Positions 11,503 through 17,979 of a stretch of 64,000 nt of DNA are shown piece by piece. How positions within the stretch are numbered: the first letter of the stretch is position 1; the number at the start of each line of letters is the position of its first letter. This DNA comes from Escherichia phage phiEC1: sequence record KY608965.1; one strand, given 5' to 3'. Under the pieces are notes generated by a model that worked only from the letters and a program-made list of their open reading frames with translations, made no database searches and was not told where the DNA came from. Made by a program: the position numbers and the translations under genes.

Positions 11503-12465
11503 TTATTTCCAAGTCAGTTCACAGGTCAGTTGAAGAAGCATATACATAACATGTAATTCAATATTACTTGCTAATCCGTGAAACTTATTATTTTCGCCTG
11601 CAATTTCATAAAGCGAAATAATACTTTTACCAGGTGCAACTTGGTCATAACATTCTGAAACTAATTTATCGATGAACCATGAATAATCTGCGGCATATTT
11701 TGGAGCTAATGCACGAAGCTGTTTTATATCTTTGTTCTTCATTGCTTCGATAACGTCAGAGACTGTGCCACGGTCATTAGTTACGATAGACAAAATACCA
11801 GCATCAAGAACACCTTTAGACGAGTACTGGTCTAATTGACCAATTGTACGACGAAAGTCCGGGAAGTTCTTTTTAACCAGAGCTGCAACAACTTTCATAT
11901 CAGCGATTTCGATATTTTCGTTCTTACAGATTTCAACCATACGATGAATCATTTTCTTCATCATCGAGATTTTATCTTCTTCGGTTGGACGTCCGAATTC
12001 GATAACTCGACAACGACTACGTAATGGTTCAATAATTCCATCGATGTTGTTAGCAGTAATAACAATAGAGCAGTTACTAGAGAATTCTTCCATAAACGTA
12101 CGAAGGTGACGTTGTGATTCGGCGAGGCCACTACGGTCAAATTCATCAATAACAATAACTTTCGGCTTGCCTTCCATTGAGACTGAACGAGCGAATGCAG
12201 TTAACGGACCACGCACAAAATCAATCTTACAATCAGAACCATTGACAAACATCATTTCGGCATTGATATCATTACATAATGCTTTTGCTACGGTTGTTTT
12301 ACCTGTACCAGGAGAAGGAGAGTGCAAAATAATATGAGGAAGTTTTCCTTTAGATACTAAAGACTTGAATGTTTCATGGTCATACGCAGGCAGAATACAT
12401 TCGTCAATGGAAGAAGGACGATATTTCTGTTCTAGAATGTGTTCTTTGGAATTGATAGTAATCAT
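11503..12465 (-). CDS. 44: clamp-loader ATPase gp44
   Basis: 320 aa; Walker [22 protein letters not shown] motif. Confidence 0.95.
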
Positions 12466-12540: not shown

Positions 12541-13227
12541 TTAGAAGTCGTGAGTAGAATCGGCTTCCATTGCAATAACATAACTTACTTGAGAGCTTTC
12601 AAACTTGGCTGCAACTTTATCACCAGCTCCCCACAACATTACTTTATAGTTACCTGGCTGGATTTTCATATTAGCCATATTGATTACAAAGTTAAAGTTA
12701 TTAGAACCATCATAATCGGTAAGAGTCAAAGAATACTTAGGACGAGTTAGTCCAGAATCTTCAACTTTATTATAACCATTGATAACAATTTTACCATCTT
12801 TATTTGTAATAGCAATTGTATCAATCTGGAGACCACGTGAAACTCGAAGCAATTGTTGAAGGTCTTCAGCTTTAATTTCAGTAATCACAGAAGCCACTGG
12901 GAATTGAATTGGCTTATTAGGAAAAACAATGGTGCTCTTGTCGGCAGCAGGCCAATAAACTGTGGAACGTGTATCTGCAATTTTAATATTGCCATCAGTG
13001 TGCATTGAAATTTCAGCATCATCAGACACTAGACTCAAAATGCTTAAGAAGCTATTCAAATCATAAAGTGCTACGTCAAAATCAATTTCATCAGAGATAT
13101 TTGCTTCCGCATAAGTGGTGCCATTAACTGCACGGGTCATAATAAATTTACCTTGACTCAGCAGAATACCGGAGTTAATAGAGGCAAAGTTTTTCAGAAT
13201 AGCGATAGTATCTTTAGACAGTTTCAT
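12541..13227 (-). CDS. 45: sliding clamp gp45
   Basis: MKLSKDTIAILKNF..., 228 aa from ATG at 13227 (track start is an upstream TTG); SD AGGAAA. Confidence 0.95.
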   Translation of the reverse strand: MKLSKDTIAILKNFASINSGILLSQGKFIMTRAVNGTTYAEANISDEIDFDVALYDLNSFLSILSLVSDDAEISMHTDGNIKIADTRSTVYWPAADKSTIVFPNKPIQFPVASVITEIKAEDLQQLLRVSRGLQIDTIAITNKDGKIVINGYNKVEDSGLTRPKYSLTLTDYDGSNNFNFVINMANMKIQPGNYKVMLWGAGDKVAAKFESSQVSYVIAMEADSTHDF

Positions 13228-13267
13228 TTTATTTCCTTTCAAGACAATTCAAAGTTTAACAAATTTA

Positions 13268-13684
13268 TTATGCAGCAACCATCTGCTTTTTAATAGCTTC
13301 AGGCAGTGATTCAATATATTCTGGAATTTTAGAAGCAACAATTTCGCCAGCTGCAATTAATTGTTCGTCGGCATCAACACAGTAGAAATCTTCCAGACGC
13401 TCAGAACCATCTTTATCAAGAACGATTTTTCCACCAGCTTCAATAGAATCTTTATAGTGCTTACGCATCAGATGAATCCACATATCAGATACATCATTAT
13501 CAATAAAACCATAAATCATAAAACGAGTTTCTTGTGGCAAAGATTGAAGCTTTTTAGCACTTGCGTCATCACAATGCAGGACCCATGCTTTACGAACACG
13601 ATTATGGTTATGTGGGTTAGCGTCAGTACGGATAGAAGTAACTTTCAGATCAGCAGCAGTGAAACCTTTAGCAGTAGTAAACAT
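13268..13684 (-). CDS. rpbA: RNA polymerase-binding protein RpbA-like
   Basis: 138-aa ORF in the T4 rpbA position between 46 and 45; assignment by synteny. Confidence 0.55.
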   Translation of the reverse strand: MFTTAKGFTAADLKVTSIRTDANPHNHNRVRKAWVLHCDDASAKKLQSLPQETRFMIYGFIDNDVSDMWIHLMRKHYKDSIEAGGKIVLDKDGSERLEDFYCVDADEQLIAAGEIVASKIPEYIESLPEAIKKQMVAA

Positions 13685-13696
13685 ATTATTTCTCTC

Positions 13697-13897
13697 TTAT
13701 TCGTAGAAGTCAGTAACTGTCCATGCGGAATTGCGATTAGACATTATTTTATTATACTCATCTTTAAAAGCAGATTTGAGCATTTGTTCAGTAACAATAT
13801 GTTCTTCACCTGAAAACGTATTGGTCAAAACATATTTTTTAATTTCAGGGACAACAAGAAGATGTTGTCCGGTTGAATACTCCATGTTGTTCTCCAT
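13697..13897 (-). CDS. hypothetical protein (45.2-like position)
   Basis: 66-aa ORF; SD GGAG upstream. Confidence 0.4.
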   Translation of the reverse strand: MENNMEYSTGQHLLVVPEIKKYVLTNTFSGEEHIVTEQMLKSAFKDEYNKIMSNRNSAWTVTDFYE

Positions 13898-13939
13898 TTA
13901 ATTTGATGTGGTCATTATAACCACATCGTGTTAAAGCGT

Positions 13940-15628
13940 TTATGAAACAGTCATCACAGTAAATCGTCCAACTTTGCTCATTTGAAGATGTTGTCCATAA
14001 GCTTGTGGGTCATGGTCTCTGTGACTAATTATAAACACGTTTGCATCGGTTAGAGAGTTAAGAATTGTTGAAATAGCTTTAATACCTTCAGAATCAGTCG
14101 CGGAATCCATGACTTCGTCCATAATTAATGTATTGATTCTAACACCAGAGATCTTTTCAGCAATATCTCGCCATGTAAACAACAATGCGATATCGATACG
14201 TGCCTTTTCACCTTGACTAAATGAAGCATAACTAAAATCTTCACGACCACGTGATTTTATAGATTCATTGAATTCTTCGTCAATAGAAAACACATAATCA
14301 GCTTCCATGATTTTAAGGTAATGGTTAATCTGCTTGTTGAACAGAGGCACATATTTTTTAATGATAGCACCTTTAATACCAGAATCTTTTAACATATCTG
14401 TTATAATACCACGATGGTATTTTTCAAGAACGATATCTGATTTTGTTTTAATGATTTTATCAAGTTCTTTTTGAAGCAAAGCTATCTCATCGGCATGGTC
14501 GATAAATTCCGCCGAGGCTTGTTCTATTGCAGCTTTAACTTTCTTAGCTTTATCAATAGTGGCAATCATTGCTTGTTTCTTAGTACGAATATCAGATGCA
14601 AGGTCCTGCTTAGTCTTAACATTAGCTCTATATTCGTCCACTAGGACACTCAGATTATCTCTGTGGCAGGTAAGTTGCTCGAATGAGTGATTACATTCAT
14701 GAAGCTTATCGGTAATCTTAGAGACAATAGGATCACCCTGGTGCAACTGTGATGCACAAGTAGGACATGTACCGCCATCATGATACATCTTAATAACTTT
14801 GTTATATGAGTCAATTTTAGATTTAATCAAGAATGCTTCTTGTCCTATCTTGTTGAATGCCTCAGTAGGGTCTTCGTCAAGAACGATATTAAGTAGACGC
14901 TCGTTAGCTTCTTCGATTTCTGCTTTTAATGAACGAGCTTCTTTAGCCAGGTCGTCATACATATTCTGTAGACGCGCTACATTATCACCAGATAATTTCT
15001 TTTGACGTTCGATATTCTCGTTATAAATCTTAATTTGTTGGATAATACCATCTTTCTTGGCATCGAGAACTTGCCCCTGGGAATTAAGTTCTCGAACTTG
15101 AGACTTATTGATTTTATCCATTTCAGCGAGTGTGCCAACTTCTAAAAGGTCTTCGACAAGTTTTCTACGAGCAGGGGTGCTAAGAGCCATGAAAGGGGTA
15201 TACCCTGCCGTCCCAAGCACAACGATTTGTTTAAAAGACGCGTATGACATTCCGATGCTACGTTCAAATTCTTCTTGGAAGTCACGACTGCTGGCAGATT
15301 CATCAAGACGAACACCGTCAACGGAGATTTCGAAAATATTGGGCTTTTGGCCACGTTTAATGAAGTATTTTTTACCATCGAATTCCATCCAAAGCTCAAC
15401 TAAGAGCTCTTTCTTGTTCGTGCTATTAATGATTTGTCCTTTCTTAACATCACGAAATGGTTTACCGAAAAGTCCGAAAGTAATGGCTTCTAACATCGTA
15501 GATTTACCACCGCCATTTTTACCTGTGATTAAGGTCTTTTGGACTTTATCTAATTGGATATCGATAAAATTTTGCCCAACAGACATTATATTTTTATAAC
15601 GAACACGATTTAATTTAAATGTTTTCAC
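13940..15628 (-). CDS. 46: recombination endonuclease subunit gp46 (Rad50/SbcC-like)
   Basis: 562 aa; Walker A GKNGGGKST, coiled-coil middle, C-terminal signature/Walker B. Confidence 0.95.
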   Translation of the reverse strand: MKTFKLNRVRYKNIMSVGQNFIDIQLDKVQKTLITGKNGGGKSTMLEAITFGLFGKPFRDVKKGQIINSTNKKELLVELWMEFDGKKYFIKRGQKPNIFEISVDGVRLDESASSRDFQEEFERSIGMSYASFKQIVVLGTAGYTPFMALSTPARRKLVEDLLEVGTLAEMDKINKSQVRELNSQGQVLDAKKDGIIQQIKIYNENIERQKKLSGDNVARLQNMYDDLAKEARSLKAEIEEANERLLNIVLDEDPTEAFNKIGQEAFLIKSKIDSYNKVIKMYHDGGTCPTCASQLHQGDPIVSKITDKLHECNHSFEQLTCHRDNLSVLVDEYRANVKTKQDLASDIRTKKQAMIATIDKAKKVKAAIEQASAEFIDHADEIALLQKELDKIIKTKSDIVLEKYHRGIITDMLKDSGIKGAIIKKYVPLFNKQINHYLKIMEADYVFSIDEEFNESIKSRGREDFSYASFSQGEKARIDIALLFTWRDIAEKISGVRINTLIMDEVMDSATDSEGIKAISTILNSLTDANVFIISHRDHDPQAYGQHLQMSKVGRFTVMTVS

Positions 15629-16490
15629 TTAAATTTTTCCTCATGAATTCAGAAACTAAAGCCTGTAAAGAACTTTGTATAGGATATCCTAAATTGACTA
15701 AATTTTTAGAAAAAGTCACATATTTAGGTTTGTTCATTTTAACCCATTCAACGTAAAGCATATCAAAATTTTCCCAATGATATCCTTTTCTTCTAGATTT
15801 CAAATGAGTGTCTCTAACTTTAGGATTTTTCCAACTGCGTGAAACTCCAGCCGATAATGATTCTCTATATTCGGCTGTTTTAGATATTTTACGACAAGCA
15901 TCCAAATGTTTTTGTTTATTAATAGGGTCACTAAACCACTTTTGGGTCATAATAGAGACGGTTTCTTTAAATTCCTTTGAACTTGTCATAATTCTGTGTT
16001 TCTTTAAATTTTCCGGATTTTTAAACCATGCTTTTAAAGCTTGACTAATCTTAATTCTATTATCCTGATTGGAATAGTATAATGTCATTTTTATAGAATT
16101 AACTTTACAAACATTTTCGAATTCTAAAGAATACGCCTCGGCTATATTATTTAGTTCATGCGTTGTACAATTTAAATTAAATCGCCCGGTATACATTCTT
16201 TGAAGCGCGTTAATCATCTTGTGGTTGCCAGTTTTTGCCAAAATGCTATGTGCAATAAAATGGTTATAATGACTTAAATGACACAAGTTCCATTTACATG
16301 TTTTAAAATCTGGAAAAATAGATTTTGGTAGTATATGGTGAACCTGAGTCAGTCCTTTTACTTTATTAGTGGAATTAGTTTTTATAAAGTTTAAATACTC
16401 ATCAAGTCCTTCCCACGAAGGGAAGGAGGTTTTAAGAATTTTATAAATTTGAGTTTCATAATCAGTCTTCGTCATTATACGCGTCCTCAA
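15615..16490 (-). CDS. free-standing HNH homing endonuclease
   Basis: 291 aa; VHHILPKS...HLSHYNHFIAH HNH motif; inserted between 46 and 47; overlaps 46 start by 14 nt. Confidence 0.7.
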   Translation of the reverse strand: MRTRIMTKTDYETQIYKILKTSFPSWEGLDEYLNFIKTNSTNKVKGLTQVHHILPKSIFPDFKTCKWNLCHLSHYNHFIAHSILAKTGNHKMINALQRMYTGRFNLNCTTHELNNIAEAYSLEFENVCKVNSIKMTLYYSNQDNRIKISQALKAWFKNPENLKKHRIMTSSKEFKETVSIMTQKWFSDPINKQKHLDACRKISKTAEYRESLSAGVSRSWKNPKVRDTHLKSRRKGYHWENFDMLYVEWVKMNKPKYVTFSKNLVNLGYPIQSSLQALVSEFMRKNLSENI

Positions 16491-16719
16491 TACATGCTTC
16501 AGCCATTTTAAGAATAGAACCAGGAGTATCGTTGTCCATTATATTAAAGCTAAATTCAATAGCCCAGTCTGTGCAGACATGAACTGCTTTAACTTCATTG
16601 CCTTCAACGCGTAATGGCTCGATCCAATACTTGATAGTGTTCTCGAATCCATCATCATCTTTAACGTCCATTTCGACTTCAAGCCTGAGTCCAGCATTGT
16701 TAAATTCATCTAAAGTCAT
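16462..16719 (-). CDS. hypothetical acidic protein
   Basis: 85-aa ORF coupled to gene 47 stop. Confidence 0.45.
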   Translation of the reverse strand: MTLDEFNNAGLRLEVEMDVKDDDGFENTIKYWIEPLRVEGNEVKAVHVCTDWAIEFSFNIMDNDTPGSILKMAEACIEDAYNDED

Positions 16720-17735
16720 TGTGTTGCCTCAATATAAAGTTCGTTGGAATATTTGACCAGCGCTTCTCTGTCTTCATCTGAGATATCTGGAATCGCGTCA
16801 ATATATTCTTTAATGATATCTTGAAGTGATTTAATCTCGATTTCCTGGTCGTCATCAGATTCAACACTGTTATCAACTTTAGAAACCATACGAAGAGAGT
16901 GAACTACTTTTTCAAGTTCAGATTCAAACTTAGTCAACTCTGAATCAATTTCTGATACTATAACACGTAAGGCTAGATTAGTATAATCAGAATAATTGAT
17001 TTTGCCTTTAAACGGATAAGTGATTCGTCGATGCCATGTTGTTTCATTAGGAATAAATTCCATACGTTCAACATCAGTGTCAAATACCCAGAATCCGCGC
17101 GGGTCGTTCTCATCACCTGCAGTAAGTGTCCATGGTGTCCCAATATATTTGACGTTAGCAGCTTCAGAGATTGTGTGGAAGTGGCCGGACCAGACTTGTT
17201 TATAGGTCTTTAAGAAATCAGGTTCAAGCCCATGAGACTTCATTCCTTTATAGAAATAAAAGCCATTCAGTTCCCAGTGCCCAACACAATACGCGGCAGA
17301 AGAAGTCTTGATGTGCTCTAAGATTTCACCTGTATTTTCTTCACACATCCATGGAACGATATCAATTAGACATCCGTCAAAATCTACAGTAGTTGGATGT
17401 TCGTAAATAGTAAAGTTTTCAAATTGAGTTAACAATTCAGAAACAGTGTTAGGTGTTATTGTATTCTTAAACGCCATGTCATGGTTTCCTATCGTGACAT
17501 GAACGTGAATGCCTGCTTTAGAAATCATATCAACTATTTCACGATTGAATTCCATTGTACGATGTGTAATTGCTTTACGGACGTCGAACCAATCACCGTA
17601 CTGAATCCAAGTTTTAATCCCGTGTTTCTTAGAGTATTCAATTGCTTGACGAATACCATCACGTTGAATATCTTGAACCCATGGGTCATCTTGTTTGACT
17701 CCGATATGGAAGTCGCCTAAGTGCAAAATTTTCAT
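16716..17735 (-). CDS. 47: recombination endonuclease subunit gp47 (Mre11/SbcD-like)
   Basis: MKILHLGDFHIG..., phosphoesterase motifs GNHD, GHWE. Confidence 0.95.
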   Translation of the reverse strand: MKILHLGDFHIGVKQDDPWVQDIQRDGIRQAIEYSKKHGIKTWIQYGDWFDVRKAITHRTMEFNREIVDMISKAGIHVHVTIGNHDMAFKNTITPNTVSELLTQFENFTIYEHPTTVDFDGCLIDIVPWMCEENTGEILEHIKTSSAAYCVGHWELNGFYFYKGMKSHGLEPDFLKTYKQVWSGHFHTISEAANVKYIGTPWTLTAGDENDPRGFWVFDTDVERMEFIPNETTWHRRITYPFKGKINYSDYTNLALRVIVSEIDSELTKFESELEKVVHSLRMVSKVDNSVESDDDQEIEIKSLQDIIKEYIDAIPDISDEDREALVKYSNELYIEATQ

Positions 17736-17781: not shown

Positions 17782-17806
17782 AAAAAAAGGAACTCCGAAG
17801 AGTTCC
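17782..17806 (-). terminator. rho-independent terminator
   Basis: GGAACUC-UUCG-GAGUUCC hairpin followed by U7 on transcribed strand. Confidence 0.7.
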
Positions 17807-17979
17807 TATCCACATAGTACACCGTACAGAGGCTCATTTGAACTTTTAAATCGAATGGGCTTGTATGTAATAGTTCCTTCGGCTTTAGCTTTATCATAAG
17901 ACTCTTTAAAACGTCTCATTCTTTCTGCTTTGCCTTTACGGATTTTATCGAAATTTTCAGAAGTCGGGATGTTCGTCAT
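17806..17979 (-). CDS. hypothetical small protein (57 aa), not in ORF track
   Basis: MTNIPTSENFDKIRKGKAERMRRFKESYDKAKAEGTITYKPIRFKSSNEPLYGVLCG; followed directly by terminator. Confidence 0.3.
   Translation of the reverse strand: MTNIPTSENFDKIRKGKAERMRRFKESYDKAKAEGTITYKPIRFKSSNEPLYGVLCG

Follow-up and report, generated by a model that had tools for sequence, protein, structure and literature searches.

A probable Mob-type HNH homing endonuclease gene abutting gene 46 of an RB69-type phage, and a candidate target and immunity polymorphism in gene 46

Directly upstream of gene 46, on the minus strand of a 64,000-nucleotide (nt) stretch of DNA from Escherichia phage phiEC1 (KY608965.1), lies a putative homing endonuclease gene (HEG), which is the subject of this analysis. 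We refer to the whole stretch as the window. It comes from an RB69-type (Mosigvirus) T-even phage, as a megablast search with positions 13940-17735 gave 94–98% identity. The HEG belongs to a string of four genes that reads 47, 46.2, HEG and 46, in which genes 47 and 46 encode the Mre11/SbcD-like and the Rad50/SbcC-like subunit of the recombination nuclease (Table 1), and gene 46 of the window is 97.6% identical to gene 46 of RB69.

A program-made open reading frame (ORF) runs on the minus strand from a TTG at 16490 to 15615 and would encode 291 amino acids (aa), which is the form described in an earlier note on this DNA. That frame exists, but translation most likely begins at the ATG at 16475 and yields a product of 286 aa, with the stop still at 15615, because a GAGGA Shine-Dalgarno sequence is found at 16484-16488 and the same 861-nt coding sequence is annotated in phages F2, AV112, pEK20 and PNJ-9. 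The TTG, five codons further upstream, was dropped as a start on these grounds. The HEG overlaps both of its neighbors by 14 nt, its ATG being located 14 nt into the 3′-end of 46.2 and its stop codon (15615-15617) 14 nt into gene 46, whose GTG start codon is at 15628; the earlier note had read the latter overlap in the same way. It had also called the ORF AT-rich and lysine-rich. The body of the ORF has indeed a GC content of 30.0%, as against 37–39% in genes 46, 46.2 and 47, but the lysine content of the product (11.9%, with an isoelectric point of 9.7) is not distinctive, since gp46 itself contains 10.3% lysine. The ORF is not a chance one, as it has homologues with E values down to 1e-93 and matches the PHROG 655 profile described below.

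In RB69 and most Mosigviruses, genes 47 and 46 are separated by gene 46.2 and then gene 46.1 (79 aa, DUF5487). The window is homologous to RB69 over 46.2 and as far as nt 22 of 46.1; the homology is then lost and continues only from base 2 of gene 46. This indicates that the HEG took the place of 46.1 and is translated from the start site of that gene. The ribosome-binding site, the start codon and the first seven codons of the HEG are those of the displaced gene, and the peptide MTKTDYE is common to the HEG product and RB69 gp46.1, as expected of an in-frame fusion. The picture in the earlier note, of an HEG that splits a tightly coupled 47-46 pair, therefore has to be revised: it overlooked the 85-aa gene 46.2 between the ORF and gene 47, and HEG-free relatives such as RB69 have both 46.2 and 46.1 at this position. 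A simple insertion into a coupled 47-46 pair is excluded, as 46.1 was replaced and 46.2 kept.

Scans for sigma-70-like promoters, for the late promoter TATAAATA and for terminators found no promoter of the HEG's own, no late promoter and no internal terminator above chance in or before the HEG, and the terminator scan located a terminator-like hairpin at 17788-17807, just upstream of gene 47, where one is likewise annotated in phage G2285. The HEG thus looks like a promoterless cassette within the 47-46.2-HEG-46 message. An RNA hairpin that masks the ribosome-binding site of the HEG, as in the regulation of I-TevI or MobE, was searched for and not found (z = +0.9).

At the protein level, the HEG product matches the profiles PHROG 655, 'homing endonuclease' (4.5e-31), and PHROG 12434, 'HNH endonuclease' (2.4e-12). 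In tblastn searches of phage genomes it aligned with T4 MobD (29% identity over 82% of the query, E 6e-13), with mobC-annotated genes (36% identity over the N-terminal 59% of the HEG protein, about 1e-18) and with mobE-annotated proteins (36–41% identity over the N-terminal ~90 residues, about 1e-8). A k-mer-based search of a large protein collection returned 15 matches and missed the T6-type relatives, so that tblastn on phage genomes was the more useful approach. The motif quoted in the earlier note, VHHILPKS...HLSHYNHFIAH, is present in the ORF, and residues H46, H47, N63, H72 and H76, which make up the H-N-H signature, are invariant among 16 aligned family members of 21–56% identity. AlphaFold2 modelled the N-terminal 125 residues, the predicted catalytic domain, with a predicted local distance difference test (pLDDT) score of 93, and within it strands 43–47 and 64–68 and helix 69–80, which carry the HNH residues in a beta-beta-alpha-metal arrangement, are predicted with pLDDT >90. 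Three tandem repeats of ~32 aa, visible in the sequence of the basic C-terminal half, are predicted to form helical hairpins (pLDDT 60–76) and are presumed to be DNA-binding modules, whereas residues 228–286 are poorly modelled. Pfam NUMOD3 motifs occur in the repeat region of three of the aligned relatives, with the HEG protein itself below the Pfam threshold. An NCBIfam scan of the HEG protein gave no match, and all that the Pfam and NCBIfam scans returned were weak spurious matches, for example to GerD and DUF1543. Identical or near-identical proteins are already deposited in GenBank as 'MobD-like homing endonuclease' or 'HNH endonuclease'.

The HEG is sporadically distributed. A comparison of the junction across T4-like genomes, as proposed in the earlier note, found that a homologue is not present in all relatives: the HEG occurs at ≥99% protein identity in nine of about 155 Mosigvirus records and is lacking from the remaining ~146. 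Carriers make up 71 of 504 Tequatrovirus records and five of 16 Gelderlandvirus records. Among five Mosigvirus carriers, the DNA of the HEG differs by just 0.1–0.7%, compared with maxima of 14% for gene 47 and 5.9% for gene 46, and such a near-identical HEG between diverged flanks is the pattern expected of an element that has been spreading recently. The ORF is intact in all five carriers examined, with at most one amino-acid change per genome and every catalytic residue kept. The family ties, the sporadic distribution and the signs of mobility argue in favor of the core claim of the earlier note, namely that a free-standing HNH homing endonuclease gene has invaded this locus.

Homologues in other lineages are found at the same gene but in different surroundings. 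The Gelderlandvirus homologue (Melville and three others) is 56% identical and lies in the order 47-HEG-46, the T6/Aplg8-type homologue of Tequatrovirus is 45% identical and lies in the order 46.1-HEG-46, and the unclassified Logan metagenome contig L022 carries an HEG of 54% identity in the order 47-HEG-46, next to a gene 46 that is 72–77% identical to the others. Across these four T-even lineages, the HEG has one neighbor that never changes, the 5′-end of gene 46. The 14-nt overlap of HEG and gene 46 recurs in Melville (..NENF*/ATG) and in L022 (..NENI*/ATG), and for this reason the HEG and the start of gene 46 appear to move as one unit. In Tequatrovirus, the HEG begins with nt 1–18 of the resident gene 46 (GTGAAGAATTTTAAACTT, MKNFKL) and supplies a new gene 46 start (ATGAAATCATTTAAACTT) on its 3′ side, so that the insertion is bracketed by a direct repeat of TTTAAACTT. 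In phage T2 the homologue (L004:2932-3784) is split into ORFs of 615 and 258 nt and is a decaying pseudogene; the 5′-end of T2 gene 46 is identical to that of intact carriers despite the split HEG.

The 5′-end of gene 46 occurs in two forms. The Gly19 class reads ..YQNIMSVGG[NS]P.., with GTR GGY GGN as codons 17–19, and is represented by RB69, RB14, RB5, ime09, S16 and STML-198. The Gln19 class reads ..Y[KS]NIMSVGQ.., with GTT GGN CAA at the same codons, and was found in every carrier examined. Fixed differences between the classes are confined to nt 51 and nt 55–57 of gene 46 (window 15572-15578). The substitutions are concentrated at the very start of the gene, the first 60 nt holding 11 of the 40 differences between the window and RB69, 23 of the 99 between Melville and STML-198 (followed by 240 nt without any), and 15 of the 87 between Aplg8 and RB14; nt 34–66, which we designate the Gln19 patch of the window, hold 12 of the 40 window-RB69 differences. 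No carrier with a Gly19 allele was seen among the nine Mosigvirus, five Gelderlandvirus and 71 Tequatrovirus records and L022, the allele having been read directly in ~10 carrier genomes and deduced for the others from blast coverage and identity. HEG-free genomes are mostly Gly19.

In L022, as in each of the three named genera, the divergent patch extends no further than nt 63–66. In Melville, nt 1–33 of gene 46 are 94% identical to a Tequatrovirus carrier and 73% identical to the phage's own genus, and L022 has the Melville patch though its gene 46 as a whole is just 77% identical, which together indicate that the patch moves with the HEG. Its ends are not fixed: on the right, AV112 is back to RB69-type bases by nt 96, and on the left, G2285 and PTE-Eco05 differ from each other at nt 7, CGG4-1 likewise showing variation at this end. 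The Gln19 patch is also found on its own. Five HEG-free Mosigviruses with an intact 46.1 (G2285, WFL6982, WFK, PTE-Eco05 and ESCO47) have it, the HEG-free Gelderlandvirus CGG4-1 is Melville-like at nt 43–63 of gene 46 only, and about 70 HEG-free records of the T4 type have it as well.

Phage T4 itself (L007:2501-2570; compared with L020 and L019) has no HEG but a Gln19 patch at nt 18–63 in an otherwise RB5-like gene 46, T4 and RB5 differing at 10 nt in the first 60 and at 32 in the whole gene. The T4 patch begins exactly at the insertion point of the T6-type HEG. This arrangement would fit an HEG that was once present and was deleted between the TTTAAACTT repeats, or a co-conversion event that left the HEG out.

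These comparisons suggest that the HEG homes into the 5′-end of gene 46, within its first ~60 bases, and that Gly19 is the target form and Gln19 the immune or co-converted form. From the family, position, distribution, low divergence and allele association of the HEG, we infer cleavage, its position and the immunity as follows. In a mixed infection, the enzyme would nick or cut the Gly19 gene 46 of an HEG-free phage at about nt 43–63, around a core GTRGGYGGN (near codons 15–21). The phage recombination machinery would then mend the break with the genome of the carrier as template, and would thereby copy in the HEG together with a short 5′ stretch of the donor gene 46, including the Gln19 allele GTTGGNCAA. 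This allele would be resistant and would shield the carrier from its own enzyme, whereas regaining the Gly19 site would expose a carrier to self-cleavage. HEG-free resistant genomes, such as the G2285-type Mosigviruses, CGG4-1 and T4, could arise from conversion tracts too short to reach the HEG or from its later deletion, and in Tequatrovirus a deletion between the TTTAAACTT repeats would likewise leave an HEG-free Gln19 genome. Taking identity and homing as one joint proposition, we consider it probable that the product is a free-standing HNH homing endonuclease of the Mob type, and that it homes into the 5′-end of gene 46, the nuclease activity and the homing being deduced from sequence comparison.

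Several points weigh against this reading. No Pfam HNH model was matched by the HEG protein or by any of the 16 aligned relatives, and searches of the PDB sequences with the single protein and with the family profile found nothing. Tequatrovirus alleles were read in six genomes only (Aplg8, T2, T4, RB14, RB5 and ime09), the rest being taken from identity bands, and since records within a genus are not independent, the Fisher P values overstate the evidence and are descriptive only. The three HEG lineages are only 45–56% identical and may not have a target in common. Furthermore, fewer than 60 base pairs (bp) separate the HEG from the Gln19 patch, so that simple linkage to donor DNA, and not immunity, could explain the association, and gene 46 is mosaic elsewhere, with ~50 differences near nt 1490–1610 (window ~14020-14140). 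The last two points are the basis of the strongest alternative, namely that the HEG is a genuine HNH homing endonuclease gene but that the Gly19/Gln19 patch is hitch-hiking donor DNA, with the recognition site located deeper in gene 46 or at a 46.1/46 or 47/46 junction that the insertion disrupted. For a patch at most 60 bp from the HEG, linkage would be expected anyway; gene 46 has other mosaic blocks without association to an HEG, and free-standing endonucleases such as SegG may cut hundreds of bp from their own gene (PMC2988022). A common junction target is unlikely, though, as the HEG-free genomes of the three genera are unrelated upstream of the gene 46 start. A hitch-hiking patch also sits poorly with the common right-hand limit at nt 63–66, with the occurrence in all three genera of HEG-free genomes that have the short patch alone, and with flanks that recombine freely and yet have given no Gly19 carrier. 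We therefore regard this alternative as unlikely, while giving it more weight than either of the two discussed below. Ordinary mosaicism as the origin of the substitution cluster is weakened by its recurrence at the same place in four lineages, though some chance of it remains.

The gene could instead be an inactive relic, once mobile and now passively inherited in a small Mosigvirus clade. Many HEGs of T-even phages are defunct, and the homologue in T2 is split into two ORFs. We nevertheless find a relic improbable, as the frame and its catalytic residues are preserved in each of the five carriers examined, and as near-identical copies in backgrounds up to 14% apart in gene 47 point to recent horizontal movement and not to clonal descent. 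We attach similarly little probability to a domesticated nuclease that benefits the phage, for example by excluding co-infecting Gly19 relatives, and that is thus not purely selfish. It is established that T4 partially excludes T2 by means of HEGs (PMC2993671), interference competition between phages has been reported to be mediated by an intron endonuclease (PMC11620839), and the target in the present case would be an essential recombination gene. Against this, the share of records with the HEG is only about 6% in Mosigvirus and about 14% in Tequatrovirus, and decay in T2 together with apparent loss fits the cycle of a selfish element; a domesticated role would in any case be compatible with homing, as the mechanism is the same. 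We favor homing into the 5′-end of gene 46 over all of these, and note that a broader version of it can be formulated, in which a single family of Mob-like HNH enzymes has specialised in the 5′-end of gene 46 and has crossed at least four T-even lineages, Gly19/Gln19 is its target/immunity polymorphism, and T4 bears its footprint (nt 18–63). On this broader version we are evenly divided.

Proteins of the Mob group consist of an HNH domain and a distinct C-terminal region (PMC2988022), and mobA, mobC, mobD and mobE have been described as promoterless cassettes (PMC2988022, PMC2790892). The best-named relative of the HEG is T4 MobD, in which, as predicted for the HEG product, the HNH domain is N-terminal and the C-terminal half is of another kind, and which is likewise free-standing and embedded in an operon. 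MobD is found at the nrdC.11/mobD.1 locus (PMC2988022), however, and the low identity indicates that the gene 46-adjacent HEG is a separate lineage with its own insertion site. The best functional precedent is T4 MobE, a promoterless cassette directly upstream of a conserved essential gene, which nicks the 5′ region of the downstream nrdB, where recombination points also map (PMC2790892), with co-conversion of the flank after the break, as we propose for the HEG. The two differ in the target, nrdB as opposed to the presumed gene 46, in C-terminal regions that are unrelated, and in that the activity of MobE has been demonstrated whereas that of the HEG is predicted. SegF and SegG of T4 offer a parallel in intronless homing, in which the HEG-free phage is cut in a neighboring conserved gene and markers close by are locally excluded or co-converted (PMC2988022, PMC2993671), but they are GIY-YIG and not HNH enzymes, and their targets are genes 56 and 32. 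The closest counterparts are the T6/T2/Aplg8-type and Melville-type HEGs introduced above, which abut the gene 46 start, are linked to Gln19 and are known by annotation only. Their left junctions differ: the Tequatrovirus HEG is fused to the first 18 nt of gene 46 with 46.1 kept, the Melville HEG directly follows gene 47, and the HEG of the window replaces 46.1. A full-text search of incomplete coverage found no literature on a gene 46-directed endonuclease or on the gene 46-adjacent HEG lineage. RB69 has been predicted to have no HEGs, and a review from 2010 saw no convincing evidence of HEGs crossing T4-type clusters (PMC2993671); our data suggest that an HEG has invaded RB69-type genomes and that movement across lineages has occurred repeatedly.

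Some further features of the locus deserve mention. The GTG start of gene 46 is placed within an AU-rich 10-bp hairpin (AAUUUAAGUG AAAA CAUUUAAAUU), in which it is paired with the 3′-end of the HEG (15600-15645, minus strand). As its fold has only a marginal edge over shuffled sequence (z -1.7), we do not claim the hairpin as real; if formed, it might couple translation of gene 46 to that of the HEG. Among HEG-free Gelderlandviruses, the gap between genes 47 and 46 varies, the two genes overlapping directly in STML-198, while CGG4-1 has a 68-aa 46.1-like ORF and S16 a 40-aa remnant. Mosigviruses recombine heavily across the 47-46 locus. The ~50 gene 46 substitutions at nt ~1490–1610 are common to AV112, PNJ-9 and PTE-Eco05 and are unlinked to the HEG, and the 5′ two-thirds of gene 47 (window ~17000-17735) are mosaic and equally unlinked to it, pEK20 and PNJ-9 being 13.7% divergent in gene 47. 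In F2, G2285, ESCO47 and Aplg8, the opposite strand carries a second, unrelated HEG of 717 nt, annotated as 'similar to mobB', which lies at the 3′-end of gene 46 or overlaps it, showing that gene 46 can have HEGs at both ends. The three Mosigviruses that carry it have a distinct cluster of substitutions in common in the last ~20 nt of gene 46. The second HEG is absent from the window, where a spacer of 42 nt only (13898-13939) separates genes 46 and 45.2.

Table 1. Features of the gene 47-46 region and its surroundings. Positions are those of the window unless preceded by the identifier of another locus.
Feature	Position	Strand	Remarks
Gene 44	11503-12465	-	
Gene 45	12541-13242	-	
rpbA	13268-13684	-	
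Gene 45.2	13697-13897	-	
Gene 46	13940-15628	-	Rad50/SbcC-like recombination nuclease subunit, 562 aa, GTG start; Pfam AAA_23 and SMC_N; presumed target gene
HEG-linked Gln19 patch	15563-15595	-	Gene 46 nt 34–66 (AAAAATATAATGTCTGTTGGGCAAAATTTTATC); candidate immunity/co-conversion patch, marks the presumed target region
HEG/gene 46 overlap	15615-15628	-	14 nt; HEG ends ..SENI*
Homing endonuclease gene (HEG), probable	15615-16475	-	286 codons and TAA stop
Three tandem repeats	15780-16067	-	Residues 137–232; ~32 aa each (S..W..NP....KH)
N-terminal catalytic domain	16101-16475	-	Residues 1–125; predicted
HNH / beta-beta-alpha-metal core	16236-16349	-	Residues 43–80; holds H46, H47, N63, H72, H76
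Left recombination junction	16454-16475	-	First 22 nt of the HEG, the kept 5′-end of 46.1
Gene 46.2	16462-16719	-	85 aa; Pfam T4_Y03C 5.6e-44; matches RB69 46.2; its 3′-end runs 14 nt into the HEG
GAGGA ribosome-binding site of HEG	16484-16488	-	Within the 3′-end of 46.2; originally that of 46.1
Gene 47	16716-17735	-	Mre11/SbcD-like subunit; Pfam Metallophos; first gene of the string
47-46 gap contents, HEG-free Gelderlandviruses	L016:1256-1462, L018:1319-1441, L009:2501		
mobB-like second HEG	L002:777-1493, L008:4185-4901, L014:4185-4901, L005:5483-6199	opposite to gene 46	

Taken alone, the HEG would be one more ordinary selfish endonuclease of a T-even phage, and we see its value in the clean natural experiment that it provides. 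The comparison gives a prediction of target and immunity at the level of single bases, namely codons 17–19 of gene 46, GTR GGY GGN as opposed to GTT GGN CAA. If this holds true, a target would be assigned to an uncharacterised branch of the Mob endonucleases, the recurrent dimorphism at the N-terminus of the Rad50-like gp46 would be explained, the transfer of an HEG between T-even genera would be documented, and the footprint of an HEG would be identified in T4. Gene 46, the phage homologue of Rad50, would then be a target that is itself part of the very repair pathway that homing exploits.

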